The notes under the pieces are model-generated. The model saw only the letters and a list, made by a program, of their open reading frames with translations, made no database searches and was not told where the DNA came from. From a virus (Duplodnaviria; Heunggongvirae; Uroviricota; Caudoviricetes), in IMG/VR virus record IMGVR_UViG_2778261231_000005: a stretch of 5,417 nt of DNA; one strand, written 5' to 3'. Position numbers and translations under genes: made by a program. Below, piece after piece: positions 88-4,315 of the stretch (the stretch's first letter is position 1; each line of letters begins with the position of its first letter).

Positions 88-105
88 TTTTTGTGGAGTA
101 AGTTG

Positions 106-471
106 ATGCGTGATATTCAGATGGTTCTTGAGCGTTGGGGGGCATGGGCGGCGAGTGATAGTTCAGGCGTTGATTATTCACCTATAGCCGCTGGGTTTAA
201 GGGACTTCTTCCCTATACAAGCAAGAAACGCTTGGCTTGTTCGGATAGTGATGCCTTAATTATTGAAGGTTGTCTTGCTCGTCTAAAGCAAAAAAGGCCG
301 GACGAACATTCGCTTCTTGTTGCCCATTACCTATACGGTATCTCTAAAAGAAAGCTCGCCAAGGCTCGTAAAAAAGATGAGAAATTGATACGTATAGAAA
401 TACAGCTAGCCGAAGGATTTATTGATGGCTGCCTTTCCATGCTAGATCTAACATTAGATTTGGACGTTTAA
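106..471 (+). CDS. Q: Late-gene antitermination protein Q (short Q-like family, about 122 aa)
   Basis: The N-terminus MRDIQMVLERWGAWAA... and the IAAGFKGL and Cys-containing segments match my memory of short Q-like antiterminators of E. coli prophages (QuuD-like). I take ATG at 106 as the start because GGAG at 96..99 sits 6 nt upstream; the ORF track instead starts at TTG 91. Stop is TAA 469..471. Confidence 0.8.
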   Translation: MRDIQMVLERWGAWAASDSSGVDYSPIAAGFKGLLPYTSKKRLACSDSDALIIEGCLARLKQKRPDEHSLLVAHYLYGISKRKLAKARKKDEKLIRIEIQLAEGFIDGCLSMLDLTLDLDV

Positions 472-500
472 TAATACGCCCCTGCATGGGGCGTATTATT
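470..500. terminator. Perfect hairpin between convergent genes; candidate bidirectional intrinsic terminator
   Basis: The arm 470..482 (aataatacgcccc) pairs perfectly with 488..500 (ggggcgtattatt) around the 5-nt loop tgcat. The GC core cgcccc/ggggcg is followed by TATTATTT on the + strand and by TATTATTAAA on the - strand. The hairpin overlaps the stop codons of both Q (469..471) and the minus-strand NTPase (500..502). Confidence 0.45.
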
Positions 501-1831
501 TACTGGATGAATGACATTTGATTAATATATTTTATCAATAACTCTCTGGGTGTAGTACTCCAAAAATTTATGTGTTCATAATCAGTATAAACATTTGTGA
601 ATTTTTTAAGTTCTTCATCACTTTTAGGGGCAAATCGCTCATTAAGAGTAATACTGTCTTTAATTATTCCGAAGAATACAATGGATATTTCAGGGATTTG
701 CGATCTTCTCTCATAAGAATAAGGTATTTCTTTTATGTTAAGCAGGTCTGCTAAATAAGATATAGATTCAGCGGTAATTTCTTGTTTTAGTTTTTCCTTG
801 TTACCAAAGCAATGTATGAAGGCAGCTACGACAAAGATCATATTTATTAAAGGATTACTGCTTTTGTTCTCATCGTCGTTTAACAGTTGAAAAATGTTAA
901 GATTGCGTGAAAATGTTTGTGTTTCACGCAATGATAAGTTGGTTCGTTGAATTAAATCACGGATAAAGTAACCTGATAATCTATTGATTTTATTCAATAA
1001 CCTTGTTTTTTCTACAAGATAATCCCAATATATAACAGAGGCTTTACATACGTTGTGACCATTTATCAAACATGTATCTGGAAGCGTGATGGTATATTTT
1101 ATAAACTTGTCAAGATATTTTTGTGAGTTAATGCTATAACCATAAATATGATTTATAGATGCTTTTAATTGTTCTGTGTTTGTAACTAAAATAAAAAAGA
1201 CATTATTGATGTCAAAAATGTGTTTTATTGTTTCAATGACATTTGTTGAAAAACTCGGCTTACATCGGTCTAATTCATCAATTATAATTACGATTTTTTG
1301 ATTTTTTGATATACTTTCGATGCAGGATTTAAGTGAATTTATGTTTTTCTCTGAGTCCATATGGTCTTCAAGCAAATTTTCAATAGTCCCATCTATTGCT
1401 GCATTGCTTGCTTTCTTCATCGCATCTTGGAATTCTTCGGCAACTTCACTAGCCTCCTGTCGTAAAAACCAACCTGCACCAGCTTTTAGTACCGTTTTTA
1501 AACCAAAGCGAATTGCAGGAAGAGATCTCTTAATGAAGTGTTGTTTTTCTTCCTCAGGCAAAATGCTGGCAATTGCAGAGGTTATGAGAAGTAATGGAGA
1601 TTCTGCATGATCCCCTTTAAAGGCATCAATATAAACAACTTTAGATTCAGTTTCTTGCTCAATAATGAGATTTTTCAGTTTGATACTAAATTCTGTTTTC
1701 CCTGTTCCCCATGCGCCGTCTATTACCAGTGGTGAAATGTCTGCCTCTGGTTTTAGCAACTTGATGATATTTTCAGCGATGTTTCTTCGTTGGAACTCGT
1801 CACGTTCAGTGAAAGATAGTGTATCTAACAT
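500..1831 (-). CDS. KAP-family P-loop NTPase (443 aa); AT-rich cargo gene, candidate defence or abortive-infection protein
   Basis: Walker A GAWGTGKT (aa 39..46, nt 1694..1717) has the GxWGxGK[ST] form typical of KAP NTPases. Walker B IVIIIDELDR (aa 180..189, nt 1265..1294) has the hhhhDELDR form typical of the same family. Hydrophobic segments between the two motifs (LLLITSAIASILP, LPAIRFGLKTVLKAGAGWFL) fit the KAP insert. The ORF is long and uninterrupted, and its composition is clearly more AT-rich than the flanking phage genes. Confidence 0.8.
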   Translation of the reverse strand: MLDTLSFTERDEFQRRNIAENIIKLLKPEADISPLVIDGAWGTGKTEFSIKLKNLIIEQETESKVVYIDAFKGDHAESPLLLITSAIASILPEEEKQHFIKRSLPAIRFGLKTVLKAGAGWFLRQEASEVAEEFQDAMKKASNAAIDGTIENLLEDHMDSEKNINSLKSCIESISKNQKIVIIIDELDRCKPSFSTNVIETIKHIFDINNVFFILVTNTEQLKASINHIYGYSINSQKYLDKFIKYTITLPDTCLINGHNVCKASVIYWDYLVEKTRLLNKINRLSGYFIRDLIQRTNLSLRETQTFSRNLNIFQLLNDDENKSSNPLINMIFVVAAFIHCFGNKEKLKQEITAESISYLADLLNIKEIPYSYERRSQIPEISIVFFGIIKDSITLNERFAPKSDEELKKFTNVYTDYEHINFWSTTPRELLIKYINQMSFIQ

Positions 1832-1893
1832 AATATAAACCTATTAACTCCTACAGTAAAAAACGAATAATACGACTTTGGGATTAAAAATCA

Positions 1894-1922
1894 TTAACGC
1901 GGTCCGCAAAAATTCTTGTAAT
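1894..1922 (+). promoter_or_regulatory. Candidate sigma70 promoter, possibly the late promoter pR'
   Basis: -35 TTAACG (1894..1899), a 17-bp spacer, and -10 TGTAAT (1917..1922), placed about 35 bp upstream of the tR'-like terminator. Lambdoid phages place pR' and the Q-utilisation site between Q and the holin gene. This is motif matching by eye only. Confidence 0.2.
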
Positions 1923-1955
1923 CTGTTAAGAGTGGTTACTTCGCCACACAGCTTA

Positions 1956-1990
1956 AACCCGCCGTCGAGCGGGTTTTGTCGTTTTTGTTG
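1956..1990 (+). terminator. Rho-independent terminator, tR'-like (the late-operon terminator that Q overrides)
   Basis: Stem aacccgc (1956..1962) pairs with gcgggtt (1969..1975) around the loop cgtcga, followed by TTTTGTCGTTTTTGTTG. No + strand gene lies immediately upstream, so this would end a short leader RNA rather than an mRNA, as at lambda tR'. Confidence 0.55.
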
Positions 1991-2127
1991 CTGGGGATTC
2001 GTTGGGCCTGGCCTATCCCGCAGTTATCCATTGGTTCGGCTCTTTGACGTTTCCGCTTCTGATTTGCGGTACATGATGTTCCCTCATTTTGCACCTGCTG
2101 TATCAGCGAGGTGAGAGATAACTACAA

Positions 2128-2454
2128 ATGCCTCATAACCCAAATACCTGGTTGGAGTTGGTCCAGAGCTGGTGGCGTGGAGACACACCGCTGGGCGCAG
2201 TGATTATGTCGATTGTTATGGCTGGTTTACGTATTGCCTATTTTGGCGGTGGTGGGGGCTGGAAACGAAAAACACTCGAAATTCTACTCTGTGGCGCTCT
2301 GACGCTGACTTTTGCATCCGCTCTTGAGTATGTCGGATGGCCTAAATCACTTTCTGTTGCCATTGGTGGTGGTGTTGGGCTGATCGGTGTCGATGCTATT
2401 CGTGGGGCAGCAATGCGAGTAATCGGTAACAAATTTGGTAGCTCGAAGGAGTAA
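2128..2454 (+). CDS. S: Holin, lambda S-like (108 aa)
   Basis: Size and architecture resemble lambda S (107 aa): hydrophobic Gly-rich segments (GAVIMSIVMAGLRIAYFGGGGGW, LLCGALTLTFASALEYVGW, VAIGGGVGLIGV) and a charged C-terminal tail. It lies immediately upstream of the endolysin. SD-like GAGGTGAG sits at 2108..2115. The start codon is uncertain. Confidence 0.8.
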   Translation: MPHNPNTWLELVQSWWRGDTPLGAVIMSIVMAGLRIAYFGGGGGWKRKTLEILLCGALTLTFASALEYVGWPKSLSVAIGGGVGLIGVDAIRGAAMRVIGNKFGSSKE

Positions 2455-2457
2455 TTT

Positions 2458-2934
2458 ATGCAGGCACTAAATTCCCAGCGTAAAGCTTTCCTTGATATGG
2501 TGGCATGGTCAGAAGGAACGGATAACGGGCGACAACCGACACGTAACCACGGTTATGACGTTATTGTTGGTGGTGAACTGTTTACTGATTACTCCGATCA
2601 TCCTCGCAAACTTGTCACGCTAAACTCCAAACTCAAATCAACAGCCGCCGGACGTTACCAGCTTCTTTCACGTTGGTGGGATGCTTACCGTAAACAGCTT
2701 GGTTTGAAAGACTTCTCCCCCAAAAGCCAGGACGCTGTGGCATTGCAGCAGATTAAAGAACGTGGCGCTTTACCGATGATTGATCGTGGTGATATTCGTC
2801 AGGCTATCGACCGTTGCAGCAATATCTGGGCTTCGTTGCCGGGCGCTGGTTACGGTCAGTATGAACATAAAATTGGTGACCTGATTGCCAGGTTTAAAGA
2901 GGTTGGCGGGGTGGTAAATGAAGTTGAGCTATAA
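2458..2934 (+). CDS. R: Endolysin, lambda R-type lytic transglycosylase (158 aa)
   Basis: The translation is near-identical over long stretches to lambda R as I recall it (QRKAFLDM.AWSEGTDNGRQ.TRNHGYDVIVGGELFTDYSDHPRKLVTLN.KLKST.AGRYQLLSRWWDAYRKQLGLKDFSPKSQDAVALQQIKERGALPMIDRGDIRQAIDRCSNIWASLPGAGYGQ). AAGGAG at 2446..2451 sits 6 nt before the ATG. Confidence 0.95.
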   Translation: MQALNSQRKAFLDMVAWSEGTDNGRQPTRNHGYDVIVGGELFTDYSDHPRKLVTLNSKLKSTAAGRYQLLSRWWDAYRKQLGLKDFSPKSQDAVALQQIKERGALPMIDRGDIRQAIDRCSNIWASLPGAGYGQYEHKIGDLIARFKEVGGVVNEVEL

Positions 2935-3379
2935 GCTAGTTATCGCTGCTTTCTTCGTTACTATTATTGGTTCTTTCATCTGGTCAGCGAATCATTACCA
3001 CAATCAAGCCATTGAATACAAAAAGCAGCGCGACGAAAACGCTATGGCATTACATTCGGCTATGGCGACGATCTCTGATATGCAGAAGCGTCAACGTGAC
3101 GTAGCTGAACTTGACGCCAGATACACAAAGGAGCTTGCTGATGCTAACACGACTCTCGAAAGTCTCCGTACTGATGTCTCTGCTGGTCGTAAGCGCTTGC
3201 AAATCGCCGCCACCTGTGCAAAGTCAACGACCGGAGCCAGCGGCATGGGCTATGGAGAAAGTCCAAGACTTACAGCTGATGCTGAACTCAATTATTACCG
3301 CCTCCGAAGTGGGATCGACAAGATAACTGCACAGGTTAACTATTTGCAGGAGTACATCAAGACACAGTGCCAGAAATGA
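2918..3379 (+). CDS. Rz: Rz, inner-membrane spanin subunit (i-spanin, 153 aa)
   Basis: N-terminal transmembrane segment (LVIAAFFVTIIGSFIWSANHY) followed by a region closely resembling lambda Rz (QRDVAELDARYTKELADA..., AGRKRL, SPRLTADAE). Its start overlaps the end of R by 17 nt. Confidence 0.85.
   Translation: MKLSYKLVIAAFFVTIIGSFIWSANHYHNQAIEYKKQRDENAMALHSAMATISDMQKRQRDVAELDARYTKELADANTTLESLRTDVSAGRKRLQIAATCAKSTTGASGMGYGESPRLTADAELNYYRLRSGIDKITAQVNYLQEYIKTQCQK
3141..3326 (+). CDS. Rz1: Rz1, outer-membrane lipoprotein spanin subunit (o-spanin, 61 aa), embedded in the +1 frame of Rz
   Basis: ATG at 3141 is preceded by AAAGGAG (3127..3133). The product MLTRLSKVSVLMSLLVVSAC... has a lipoprotein signal with lipobox VSAC, then a Pro-rich stretch (KSPPPVQSQRPEPAAW) like lambda Rz1. 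The ORF track starts it at TTG 3111. Confidence 0.75.
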   Translation: MLTRLSKVSVLMSLLVVSACKSPPPVQSQRPEPAAWAMEKVQDLQLMLNSIITASEVGSTR

Positions 3380-3451: not shown

Positions 3452-4315
3452 ATGGAAAGAGGTGTGGTATTTAGTGCATGCGAATTACTTAAAACCGAGG
3501 ATGGAAAAGGCATCCGTACAGGTAAATGGATTAGTCAATTAGAAATAAACTATCTATGTCTTTATTGGGATAAACTAGTTTCACCCACTAATAATATTAT
3601 ACATACAGCATTAAATAACGAGGATGAATTAGAAAAATGTGGATTGCTAACCAGACCTGTATATAGACATCATGGTTGTTTTGATGGCCAATATATGGCT
3701 GATTTTTATGCTGAAACTCATGCCAAAACAATAGATATACTTAGGCATGCGGATTCTTCTGTCGATTGGCGCATGCATTTTTTAAGTGACCAAATAAACT
3801 TGGTGCCTGAATTATCTAGAACCTCAGAAGTGATACGTTTTGAGCTAGAAAATTTATTACCCGTTCCCACAGAAGATGTGCACCTACATGATATTCTTGA
3901 TTTCAAGGAAAGAAGAAAACCTGAATTAATCGCTTTACATGAATATCTTGATGAGCTTTACTTGGAAATAAAACGTTCTGGTGATATCAATCTTCAGAAA
4001 GCAAAAGCTCTTTCTAATCTTAAACAAGCAATAAAGGATATTGAACGCTTAAATTGTGAAGTGTGGAAAAGTCCAATAAAATTTAGCATCTCTACTTCCT
4101 TTGAGTTCGATTTTTCACAAATATTTAGTCTGGCGGGAACTGTTTTATCTATGTCAGTAGATTATCCTTATAATGTTATTGGAGGGGTAAGTAGTTTTGC
4201 TTATTTTTTGGGAGGATGCATAAAAATAAAGCCACAATTTCAACAAGTGTTATCATTAGGTAATGATAAATTAGTTTACATAAGCAAAGGAAAATCGGAG
4301 GGTATTATTTCCTGA
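3452..4315 (+). CDS. Hypothetical protein (287 aa), AT-rich cargo gene of unknown function
   Basis: Long open frame with a strong SD (AGGAG 3441..3445, 6 nt before ATG 3452). Composition is clearly more AT-rich than the flanking lysis and packaging genes. No catalytic motif recognised. The C-terminal part (about aa 224..257, nt 4121..4222) is moderately hydrophobic (IFSLAGTVLSMSV, VIGGVSSFAYFLGGCI). Confidence 0.7.
   Translation: MERGVVFSACELLKTEDGKGIRTGKWISQLEINYLCLYWDKLVSPTNNIIHTALNNEDELEKCGLLTRPVYRHHGCFDGQYMADFYAETHAKTIDILRHADSSVDWRMHFLSDQINLVPELSRTSEVIRFELENLLPVPTEDVHLHDILDFKERRKPELIALHEYLDELYLEIKRSGDINLQKAKALSNLKQAIKDIERLNCEVWKSPIKFSISTSFEFDFSQIFSLAGTVLSMSVDYPYNVIGGVSSFAYFLGGCIKIKPQFQQVLSLGNDKLVYISKGKSEGIIS

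Follow-up and report, generated by a model that had tools for sequence, protein, structure and literature searches.

A soluble stand-alone KAP-family NTPase as candidate anti-phage cargo between the antiterminator Q gene and the late genes of a lambdoid prophage

Many prokaryotic members of the KAP family of P-loop NTPases carry transmembrane (TM) helices at the NTPase domain, a trait that is typical of the family and not universal. The defence ATPases RdrA (RADAR) and BrxC (BREX) are proteins of about 800 aa or more that have partners, RdrB in one case and BrxB/PglZ, among others, in the other. Tmn is reportedly an anti-phage P-loop NTPase encoded by a single gene (Gao et al. 2020). It is a YobI-family protein whose P-loop domain contains two TM helices, and it assembles into a decamer in the membrane (PMC13001434). 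PifA, encoded on the F plasmid, belongs to the KAP family and has no TM helices; it stops T7 by aborting the infection (PMC13001434) and is a single-gene anti-phage function borne on a mobile element (PMC13001434; PMC8594841). QatA is a DNA-binding protein that assembles into heptamers or octamers (PMC13279940). EF_KAP and related KAP NTPases, whose C-terminal regions have no assigned function, defend Enterococcus (PLoS Biol 2026, PMC13552941); the model of EF_KAP, a protein from Firmicutes, has two TM helices and 322 aa of C-terminal region, and neither this region nor Walker B is dispensable for defence (PMC13552941). The defence mechanisms of the KAP family are poorly understood, the mechanism of PifA being described as unknown, the role of QatA as unclear and the mechanism of that study's own KAP proteins as open (PLoS Biol 2026, PMC13552941). 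Finally, PDC-S20 is a single-gene entry of PADLOC, one of 145 computationally predicted phage defence candidates, the PDCs having been defined from genes embedded in defence systems (Payne et al. 2024, bioRxiv 10.1101/2024.01.29.577857). A literature search returned no paper naming PDC-S20, and none on the KAP family in connection with prophages and superinfection exclusion.

The gene described here lies in a 5,417-nt stretch of Caudoviricetes DNA (IMG/VR record IMGVR_UViG_2778261231_000005), the whole of which is referred to as the window. Its product is a stand-alone KAP-family P-loop NTPase, with the following parts:

500..1831, minus strand: coding sequence of the KAP-family NTPase, 443 aa (PADLOC PDC-S20; PHROG 8614), from the open reading frame and profile matches
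[quoted passage not shown]
1694..1717, minus strand: Walker A, GAWGTGKT (aa 39-46), from a motif search
1265..1294, minus strand: Walker B, IVIIIDELDR (aa 180-189), from a motif search
1481..1543, minus strand: conserved cationic amphipathic helix in the Walker A-B insert (aa 97-117), from the hydrophobic moment
503..880, minus strand: fast-evolving, all-helical C-terminal domain (aa 318-443), from alignment, dN/dS and AlphaFold

The open reading frame starts with ATG, and the motif search recovered both Walker motifs that the original prediction had read in the minus-strand 443-aa product. Its assignment to the KAP family was borne out by a match to Pfam KAP_NTPase (PF07693; E=9.4e-71, 238.9 bits against a gathering cut-off of 20), which spans aa 15-317 and profile positions 1-292 of 293, and the phrog_8614 profile matched at E=8.6e-189. 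In an alignment of 36 homologs, residues G39, W41, G42, T43, G44 and K45 of Walker A and D185, E186, L187, D188, R189 and C190 of the Walker B region are invariant, and this holds down to 38% identity. The gene is also more AT-rich than the phage backbone, as had been noticed beforehand, with a GC content of 0.327 against about 0.5 in the backbone and flanks; in sliding windows, values of 0.26-0.34 within the gene compare with 0.47-0.51 in the lysis genes.

When compared with defence models, the protein matched PADLOC PDC-S20 over its full length (model PDLC04956; E=3.7e-177, 588 bits, aa 3-442 on profile positions 4-449 of 450), and three further PDC-S20 models matched at E=6e-52 to 5e-29. 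This fits the proposal of a candidate defence gene made in the original prediction, but removes the novelty that it implied, since the family is already catalogued as PDC-S20 (Payne et al. 2024) and the RefSeq annotation of the gene reads KAP family NTPase. Being listed among these candidates, the gene is a good lead and not a new one. A 40%-identical homolog (P0116) is found inside a type I R-M operon, in the order hsdM-hsdS-DUF4357-KAP-hsdR on one strand (locus L106), which is the kind of context that defines PDCs, whereas the copy in the window is not embedded in a defence system and sits as prophage cargo beside Q.

Between the Walker motifs, the hydrophobic segments mentioned in the original prediction do exist, but they are not of TM grade, as the best 19-aa Kyte-Doolittle window reaches 0.99 in this insert and 1.53 in the whole protein (aa 325-343). 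At a threshold of about 1.6, no TM helix is predicted anywhere in the 443 aa, so that hydropathy does not support a transmembrane KAP architecture, and the protein is predicted to be soluble. The insert is occupied by an amphipathic helix (aa 97-117) instead of the TM helices that canonical KAP proteins have at this position. The hydrophobic moment of this helix is 0.58, while the protein as a whole averages 0.27 (sd 0.13), and the net charge over aa 93-126 is +3. Residues P105, A106, T113, K116 and A117 of the insert are invariant in the 36 homologs, and the AlphaFold model falls below a pLDDT of 50 at aa 113-154, next to the helix.

Each of the described systems resembles the protein in part. 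Like PifA, it is a KAP NTPase without TM helices, and the PADLOC PifA model matches aa 7-252 (E=6.3e-18); however, only the NTPase part is covered (profile positions 13-255 of 720), the long C-terminal region of PifA is absent, and the 125-aa C-terminal domain found here has no detected PifA similarity. With a match that ends at position 255 of 720, the 443-aa protein does not qualify as a whole-length PifA. With EF_KAP it shares the organisation as a single-protein KAP NTPase with an uncharacterised C-terminal region but, going by the published description only, it differs in having no predicted TM helix and about 125 C-terminal residues. QatA is also a KAP-family NTPase and its models give matches (PADLOC, E=7.2e-12; NCBIfam, E=1e-8), although these are restricted to aa 125-256 and the NCBIfam score is 34.4 bits against an equivalog cut-off of 600; given this score, and with Q and a holin as neighbours and no qatBCD nearby, membership in QatABCD was rejected. 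RdrA and BrxC differ from it in sequence (10-16% identity), and the protein does not belong to RADAR, as it is far shorter than these ATPases and has no adjacent RdrB. In general, genes of the RdrB, BrxB/PglZ or qatBCD type are absent beside the KAP gene. Tmn, to which the original prediction had related the protein, is similarly a single-gene P-loop NTPase without an obvious effector domain, but this link did not survive: Tmn is a YobI-family protein with two TM helices, the KAP protein has none, and no Tmn-named PADLOC match was obtained at E<=1, which presumes that PADLOC-DB 2.0 includes a Tmn model.

No recognised domain was found in aa 318-443 by Pfam, PADLOC, NCBIfam and PHROG profile searches, in agreement with the earlier reading that the protein lacks a recognisable effector domain. 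The consensus of this C-terminal domain is largely undefined among the 36 homologs. Measured against the Salmonella ortholog, dN/dS is 0.14 overall, 0.10 in the N-domain and 0.46 in the C-terminal domain, and identity to the proteins of 186-type prophages is 11-19% in the C-terminal domain against 51-54% in the N-domain. Swapping of C-terminal domains between lineages was rejected, given that hhalign finds these domains homologous (98.1%, E=1.2e-13) and that the identities of N- and C-domains correlate (r=0.86). The AlphaFold model has a pLDDT of 81 overall and of 84-94 in the C-terminal helices, and the best structural matches found with Foldseek are the defence ATPases BrxC and RdrA; with TM scores of 0.36-0.46, these matches are modest and reflect, for the most part, the generic AAA+/STAND-like core. 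A PDB sequence search with the KAP family profile gave no match. The gene is real, constrained and under purifying selection, and its C-terminal helical domain is a candidate specificity or sensor module.

The neighbourhood of the gene includes the following features:

91..471, plus strand: short-type antiterminator Q gene (PF06530; Pfam E=2.1e-52), left border of the slot
470..500, no strand assigned: 13-bp perfect palindromic hairpin with arms 470-482 and 488-500, from sequence and RNA folding
1832..1886, no strand assigned: 5' flank specific to the KAP cargo, containing a weak ribosome-binding site, from conservation
1887..2127, plus strand: conserved pre-holin block, right border of the slot, from SfII/SfIV homology and BLAST
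1955..~1986, within the pre-holin block: intrinsic terminator, stem-loop 1955-1976 plus a T-run to ~1986, from a terminator scan
2128..2454, plus strand: lambda-family holin S, first late gene 3' of the slot (Pfam PF05106, E=5.7e-25)

The start codon of Q is uncertain, RefSeq annotating the equivalent of 103-471 (in L001), and this Q type, at a coverage of at least 80% of the query, is present in 592 of 5,426 E. coli genomes. Q, on the plus strand, and the KAP gene, on the minus strand, are arranged tail-to-tail, and the hairpin overlaps the stop codons of both. Its folding energy is -22.1 kcal/mol on the plus strand (z=-5.1) and -20.8 on the minus strand (z=-5.9), with none of 200 shuffles as good. 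It is conserved in Salmonella and also in Citrobacter, there with a compensatory C-G to T-A change. The hairpin is a candidate bidirectional terminator. At the other end of the gene, the 5' flank is common to E. coli and Salmonella and is absent as a conserved stretch in Citrobacter. A promoter scan upstream of the gene found no convincing KAP promoter, the promoter-like sites being at chance frequency (8 found vs 6.9 expected). The sole match on the minus strand (1860-1832, 9/12) was rejected because it abuts the ATG, so that a transcript from it would begin within the open reading frame. Homology to SfII and SfIV begins at 1886/1887. The pre-holin block presumably contains the Q-dependent late promoter region; a search by eye of 1887..2127 for the exact late promoter and qut site gave no convincing sigma-70 match. 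The holin, endolysin and Rz genes occupy 2128-3379 on the plus strand. An Rfam scan of the whole window gave no match at E<=1, and a link to the Pas sRNA was discarded, as the preprint in question concerns another Q family (PF03589, against PF06530 here).

The interval between Q and the late block was surveyed in 80 related viral contigs or loci with a 74-99% identical short-type Q. BLAST located the conserved block in 72 of them, and in six the slot is empty, the block directly following the Q stop (at -10 to +9 relative to it). The non-empty slots hold at least 15 unrelated antisense cargos, and defence-type genes occupy equivalent positions in related phages. These include a TIR-TM protein (E=1.9e-57), PDC-S42 (3.6e-27), an HNH-effector-like/PDC-M68A protein (7.5e-27), an NYN protein and, in SfII, PDC-M53. 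The lc porin of PA-2 is a non-defence cargo, many other cargos have no assigned function, and neither cdtI orf53/54 nor SfIV gp48/49 had a PADLOC match; with such a porin and so many function-less genes in the same slot, guilt by location is not proof. The antisense insertion between Q and the late genes, as originally proposed, is thereby confirmed and delimited, and the locus has the properties of a moron site or hotspot, namely defined bounds, flanks that are conserved, an allele with an empty site and a choice of other cargos, defence genes among them. The comparison supports the view that the KAP gene is horizontally acquired cargo in a precisely bounded variable slot.

The identical protein occurs on 97 E. 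coli contigs, and its 92%-identical Salmonella ortholog on at least 1,000. Among 5,426 complete E. coli genomes, 50 carry the gene, beside Q in every case, and in two E. coli genomes that were inspected the host element is an SfV-like lambdoid prophage integrated at tRNA-Thr. One prophage that retains the gene is degraded, at ~12 kb, and another appears intact. The tail-to-tail arrangement with Q is also found in Salmonella, Citrobacter, Klebsiella and Cronobacter, beside differing lysis cassettes. In 186-like prophages of E. coli, Yersinia and Serratia, other homologs belong to the lysogenic operon, where they lie between the genes for the CI repressor and integrase and share their strand; this position has been named an antiviral hotspot in Vibrionaceae (PMC9122126). 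A nucleotide search of the phage collection found no deposited phage genome with the KAP gene, the best tblastn match being a Salmonella houtenae record at 44% identity.

The best explanation of these data would be that of a soluble, stand-alone KAP NTPase carried as prophage cargo, which most likely defends the lysogen against other phages; we give this reading a probability of roughly 60%. Circumstantially, the case for defence is strong, as it combines the PDC-S20 match, the slot-mates, the cI-int operon and the R-M operon. Both expression in the lysogen and a defence phenotype are what we infer, and the failure to find a convincing promoter weakens the case for expression in the lambdoid context.

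It is unlikely that the protein instead works for the prophage, be it in addiction or maintenance or by modulating lysis timing or Q-dependent late transcription. Such a role would explain the tight tail-to-tail linkage with Q, and it agrees with the retention of the gene in degraded prophages and with the conservation of the Q-KAP pairing and shared hairpin across E. coli, Citrobacter, Klebsiella and Cronobacter, at 44-92% protein identity and next to differing lysis cassettes. However, Q genes of this type do without the KAP protein, since their slot may be empty or hold any of the unrelated cargos; relatives of the KAP gene occur where there is no Q, in the 186-like cI-int operon and in the type I R-M operon, and no feature of the protein points to RNA polymerase or Q binding. 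Quite improbable, too, is a role in lysogenic conversion or host fitness that has nothing to do with phages, for instance in colonisation or virulence. Such a role is suggested by the place of the ortholog in Salmonella pathogenicity island 12 (SPI-12): in the phage remnant there, the gene separates the Q gene STM2239 from the late genes, adjoins an sspH2-like gene for an LRR-NEL effector and an oafA-like gene and, by gene order only, would correspond to STM2238. SPI-12 is linked to in-host fitness, as is STM2239, which is SsrB-regulated (PMC7380047; PMC5626846), and STM2238 goes up ~2-fold on PreA overexpression (PMC2653508); the lc porin of PA-2 adds an example of such cargo in the slot. Against this, the literature yielded no fitness phenotype attributed to the KAP gene itself, and the broad spread of the family over commensal and environmental Enterobacterales, together with its moron and R-M contexts, makes defence fit better than virulence.

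Conservation leaves very little room for a decaying or selfish passenger gene without current function, the least probable of these explanations. The AT-rich, foreign character of the DNA would suit such a gene, as would the disruption seen in two of the 12 KAP-bearing viral contigs and the truncated copies in the protein cluster, but dN/dS is low both overall (0.14) and in the NTPase domain (0.10), the catalytic motifs are invariant in 36 homologs, the length is conserved across genera at 440-447 aa and a representative library holds 270 family clusters at E<=1e-30. A pseudogene or junk reading was rejected on the basis of dN/dS and motif conservation.

If the protein defends the lysogen, the C-terminal helical domain may recognise a phage-derived trigger, either protein or nucleic acid, and the conserved NTPase would then assemble into a ring oligomer in an NTP-dependent way, as its structural relatives RdrA, BrxC and QatA do. 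For want of an enzymatic effector domain, the action would fall to the oligomer, which could bind and block phage DNA or a phage complex; alternatively, its conserved cationic amphipathic insert might act on the membrane or the energy state so that infection is aborted, in a PifA-like manner. We infer every step of this scheme, and the lack of an effector domain makes the killing or blocking step speculative. A defensive protein of this kind would be among the smallest NTPase-only anti-phage systems and, as such, a tractable model for KAP action without a dedicated effector. Defence would also bring a phage-related reading to SPI-12, an island that has been studied only for virulence.

A wider proposal has two parts that would have to hold together, and is put forward tentatively, with the odds somewhat against it. 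In this proposal, a soluble KAP NTPase of ~445 aa, without effector domain or partner gene, would be a complete anti-phage system in which the C-terminal domain senses and the NTP-driven oligomer is the effector, and the Q-late-block interval of SfV-like/lambdoid prophages would be an undescribed defence hotspot with a recognisable empty site, whose two most abundant cargos would be new defence systems. No description of this interval as a defence hotspot was found, and the bounded slot, its empty site and its varied cargos are newly described in this analysis. With its conserved flanks and empty-site allele, the slot could be used as bait for candidate defence genes of enterobacterial prophages, and this by-product may be worth more than the KAP gene itself. 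Two abundant cargo types of the slot carry no annotation. The two most abundant cargos are a ~150-aa TM protein with a DUF6731-like partner and a protein of 336-343 aa.

The gene between the Q antiterminator gene and the lysis genes encodes a KAP-family NTPase that, judged from its sequence, is a defence candidate of the PDC-S20 family, and the probability that it acts as a lysogen-expressed anti-phage gene can be put at about 0.6. The main new result is the defined cargo slot that it occupies, which extends from a short-type Q gene to a conserved block preceding the holin gene. The features of the window are as follows.

91-471, Q antiterminator gene (PF06530)
470-500, perfect 13-bp palindrome that overlaps the Q and KAP stop codons
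500-1831, minus strand, KAP-family NTPase ORF (443 aa, ATG start), with Walker A GAWGTGKT at aa 39-46 and Walker B IVIIIDELDR at aa 180-189 (motif search)
1887-2127, conserved pre-holin block
2128-3379, genes for holin, GH24 endolysin and Rz
after Rz, genes for an HNH endonuclease and then a P27-type small terminase

The KAP assignment with both Walker motifs, made in the original prediction, is confirmed by this ORF, its motifs and a Pfam KAP_NTPase match over aa 15-317 (E=9.4e-71; 238.9 bits against a cut-off of 20). The neighbours had also been named correctly, with Q on one side and the lysis genes on the other, as had the AT-richness relative to the backbone: the GC content of the gene is 0.327, with sliding-window values of 0.26-0.34 against 0.47-0.51 in the lysis genes. 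Hydrophobic segments do lie between the Walker motifs, as had been described, but they remain below transmembrane grade. The best 19-residue Kyte-Doolittle window reaches 0.99 there and 1.53 in the whole protein, where no segment attains the usual transmembrane threshold of about 1.6. PHROG 8614 (function unknown) matches the full length, and none of the family libraries searched recognised a family in aa 318-443.

The interpretation as a defence candidate is upheld by the PADLOC PDC-S20 model, which matches the full-length protein (E=3.7e-177); the implied novelty is not, the family being already catalogued under that name. PDCs are 145 computationally predicted candidates, derived by guilt-by-embedding in BREX, DISARM and type I R-M loci (Payne et al. 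2024 preprint), and a literature search found no paper naming PDC-S20. The suggested likeness to Tmn fails, since no Tmn-named PADLOC model matches the protein and Tmn belongs to the YobI family, defined by two transmembrane helices within the P-loop domain (PMC13001434). The PADLOC models of PifA (6e-18) and QatA (7e-12) match the NTPase part only, and the NCBIfam QatA score is far under its cut-off. QatA, which is likewise a KAP NTPase, is a DNA-binding protein that assembles into heptamers or octamers (PMC13279940). Despite having no transmembrane helices, PifA depolarises the membrane and causes nucleotides to leak (PMC13001434). In Enterococcus, KAP NTPases whose C-terminal regions are of unknown function provide defence and need their Walker B motif (PMC13552941).

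The slot was surveyed in 80 viral contigs with Q proteins 74-99% identical to that of the window, by locating the Q stop, the block and the intervening ORFs. The block was detected in 72 of these loci. Six loci (L059, L092, L096, L097, L099 and L100) show an empty site: no cargo is present, and the block is positioned at -10 to +9 relative to the Q stop. The remaining loci with enough downstream sequence carry a series of ORFs in antisense orientation to Q, in most cases located between the Q stop and the block. The cargos form 26 clusters and about 15 architectures, including the following.

KAP gene, 12 loci (2 disrupted)
about 150-aa TM protein with a 313-340-aa DUF6731-like protein, 20 of 80 loci, also orf53/54 of phage cdtI
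336-343-aa protein, 12 of 80 loci
set of three genes, the large protein matching PDC-S42 (3.6e-27), 6 loci, plus 1 without the small middle ORF
TIR-TM protein (1.9e-57), 4 loci
HNH protein resembling CBASS effectors and PDC-M68A (7.5e-27), 4 loci
NYN-domain protein, 3 loci

Other cargos include an SDH-type protease match, and the two abundant ones (the TM and DUF6731-like pair and the 336-343-aa protein) have neither annotation nor PADLOC match. In the same slot, phage SfII carries PDC-M53A+B (L024 1542-3156, minus strand), encoded by SfII_49 and SfII_50, which are annotated as hypothetical and match PDC-M53B and PDC-M53A (E=2.8e-54 and 2.1e-32, respectively), and PA-2 carries the lc porin. 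Defence-type genes are abundant in the Q-to-block slot. The backbone becomes homologous to that of SfII and SfIV again from window 1886/1887 onward, and the survey, the empty sites and the alternative cargos place the KAP gene exactly between Q and the block, in agreement with the predicted insertion between Q and the late promoter. The two disrupted copies consist of a single 214-aa ORF (L026) and of ORFs of 113 and 280 aa (L054).

Within the block, a strong terminator is found at 1955-1976 plus a T-run. The block presumably holds the Q-dependent late promoter and may represent a late promoter with a short terminated transcript, although no promoter was pinpointed and no Rfam family could be assigned in 1887-2127. 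At the other end of the slot, the palindrome at 470-500 folds at -22.1 kcal/mol on the plus strand (z=-5.1) and -20.8 on the minus strand (z=-5.9), and is kept in Citrobacter with a compensatory change; it could well act as a bidirectional terminator that keeps Q and KAP transcription apart. A promoter scan found no KAP promoter: promoter-like sites occur at chance level, and the sole consensus match abuts the ATG.

Beyond the window, Salmonella, Citrobacter, Klebsiella and Cronobacter also have a family member arranged tail-to-tail with Q; the gap is again 27-38 nt, and the Q-KAP pairs adjoin four different lysis cassettes. In 186-like prophages of E. coli, Yersinia and Serratia, a member lies between the CI repressor and integrase genes on the same strand; since this position falls within the lysogenic operon, expression in lysogens is implied, and the cI-int interval of a P2-related phage has been named an antiviral hotspot in Vibrionaceae (PMC9122126). 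Finally, a 40%-identical member sits within a type I R-M operon (hsdM-hsdS-DUF4357-KAP-hsdR; L106 4275-12619). The occurrence of one family in three unrelated mobile or defence contexts is the strongest argument for a defence role. In Citrobacter prophages (L003-L007, 5808-6893), the stretch from the KAP gene to the holin contains, downstream of the block, an extra gene for a FUSC-family membrane protein, a further cargo of the Q-to-lysis interval. The Yersinia and Serratia 186-like prophages (L013 7494-7976; L016 7470-7970) have an extra 160-166-aa ORF between the CI repressor and KAP genes, a possible partner gene, with a weak BRCT match in Serratia (E=0.0037); in E. coli (L008) just a 61-aa YdcA-like ORF is found there.

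Comparison with the 92%-identical Salmonella ortholog gives a dN/dS of 0.14 for the whole protein; taken separately, aa 1-317 give 0.10 and aa 318-443 give 0.46. When 36 homologs (to 38% identity) are aligned, little or no variation is seen in the catalytic motifs and in much of the first 315 residues, and the C-terminal 125 residues are almost without consensus. Lambdoid-type and 186-type proteins share 51-54% identity in the N-domain and 11-19% in the C-domain. A swapped C-terminal module was considered and rejected, because the two C-domains are homologous (hhalign 98.1%, E=1.2e-13) and N- and C-domain identities correlate (r=0.86); the C-domain is a single fold whose evolution is about two to three times faster. 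The GC content is 0.32-0.34 across E. coli, Salmonella, Citrobacter, Yersinia and Serratia, as is typical of mobile cargo. An exhaustive representative search returned 9,966 relatives at E<=1e-3 (270 clusters at E<=1e-30), mostly of 430-470 aa, which indicates a large family of compact stand-alone proteins; the majority of alignments end near query residue 345.

That the gene is junk is excluded, as selection and motif conservation contradict it, and the gene can be taken as functional. A function of the phage itself, linked to Q, is unlikely, given that this Q type also functions when the slot is empty or filled with another cargo, and that the family is found without Q as well. A role in host fitness deserves mention: the Salmonella Typhimurium ortholog (L002 8001-9332) is part of the phage remnant in SPI-12, with STM2239 (Q) on one side and the holin on the other, and an LRR-NEL effector gene (sspH2-like), an oafA-like gene and pagL are found nearby. 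STM2239 is SsrB-regulated (PMC7380047; PMC5626846), and STM2238, a 'putative phage protein' that by gene order is probably the ortholog, rises about 2-fold with PreA overexpression (PMC2653508); the literature search found no phenotype tied to the ortholog gene itself.

For a defence function, a tentative and rather doubtful mechanism can be outlined. The AlphaFold2 model (pLDDT 81.3, pTM 0.76; low confidence limited to aa 113-154) has an all-helical C-terminal domain, and a PDB sequence search found no relative. Where canonical KAP proteins have transmembrane helices, this protein has a cationic amphipathic helix (aa 97-117) that is conserved and whose hydrophobic moment is 0.58, the mean being 0.27. 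The variable C-terminal domain would sense a phage component, upon which the NTPase would assemble into a ring. Since no effector is present, assembly itself would act, either by blocking a phage nucleoprotein complex or by perturbing the membrane or energy state in a PifA-like manner. Both abortive and non-abortive outcomes are conceivable, as in one Enterococcus case KAP defence does not proceed via abortive infection (PMC13552941).

The window derives from an SfV-like lambdoid prophage of E. coli; in both genomes inspected, this prophage is integrated at tRNA-Thr. The 1.45-kb segment is present (at least 95% identity) in 50 of 5,426 complete E. coli genomes, always chromosomal and adjoining Q, and the KAP gene was not found in any deposited phage genome. 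In strain Combat11I9 the prophage is apparently intact, with a lambdoid early region, HK97-type head and contractile tail; in LH10-b-1 it is reduced to a remnant of about 12 kb that still keeps the KAP gene. The identical protein occurs on 97 contigs, and its 90% cluster comprises 2,139 members, mainly from Salmonella, one Salmonella sequence being found on at least 1,000 contigs; the protein cluster also contains truncated copies. A second AT-rich cargo gene (3452-4315, plus strand, GC 0.31-0.37) lies between Rz and the HNH and small-terminase genes and encodes a 287-aa DUF6236 protein (Pfam E=9e-32; phrog_23128, function unknown), which has no PADLOC match and is found in 32 of the 5,426 E. 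coli genomes. An ORF at 3111-3326 (plus strand), nested in the Rz gene in another reading frame and with the lipobox-like motif LLVVSAC, most likely encodes the Rz1 o-spanin.
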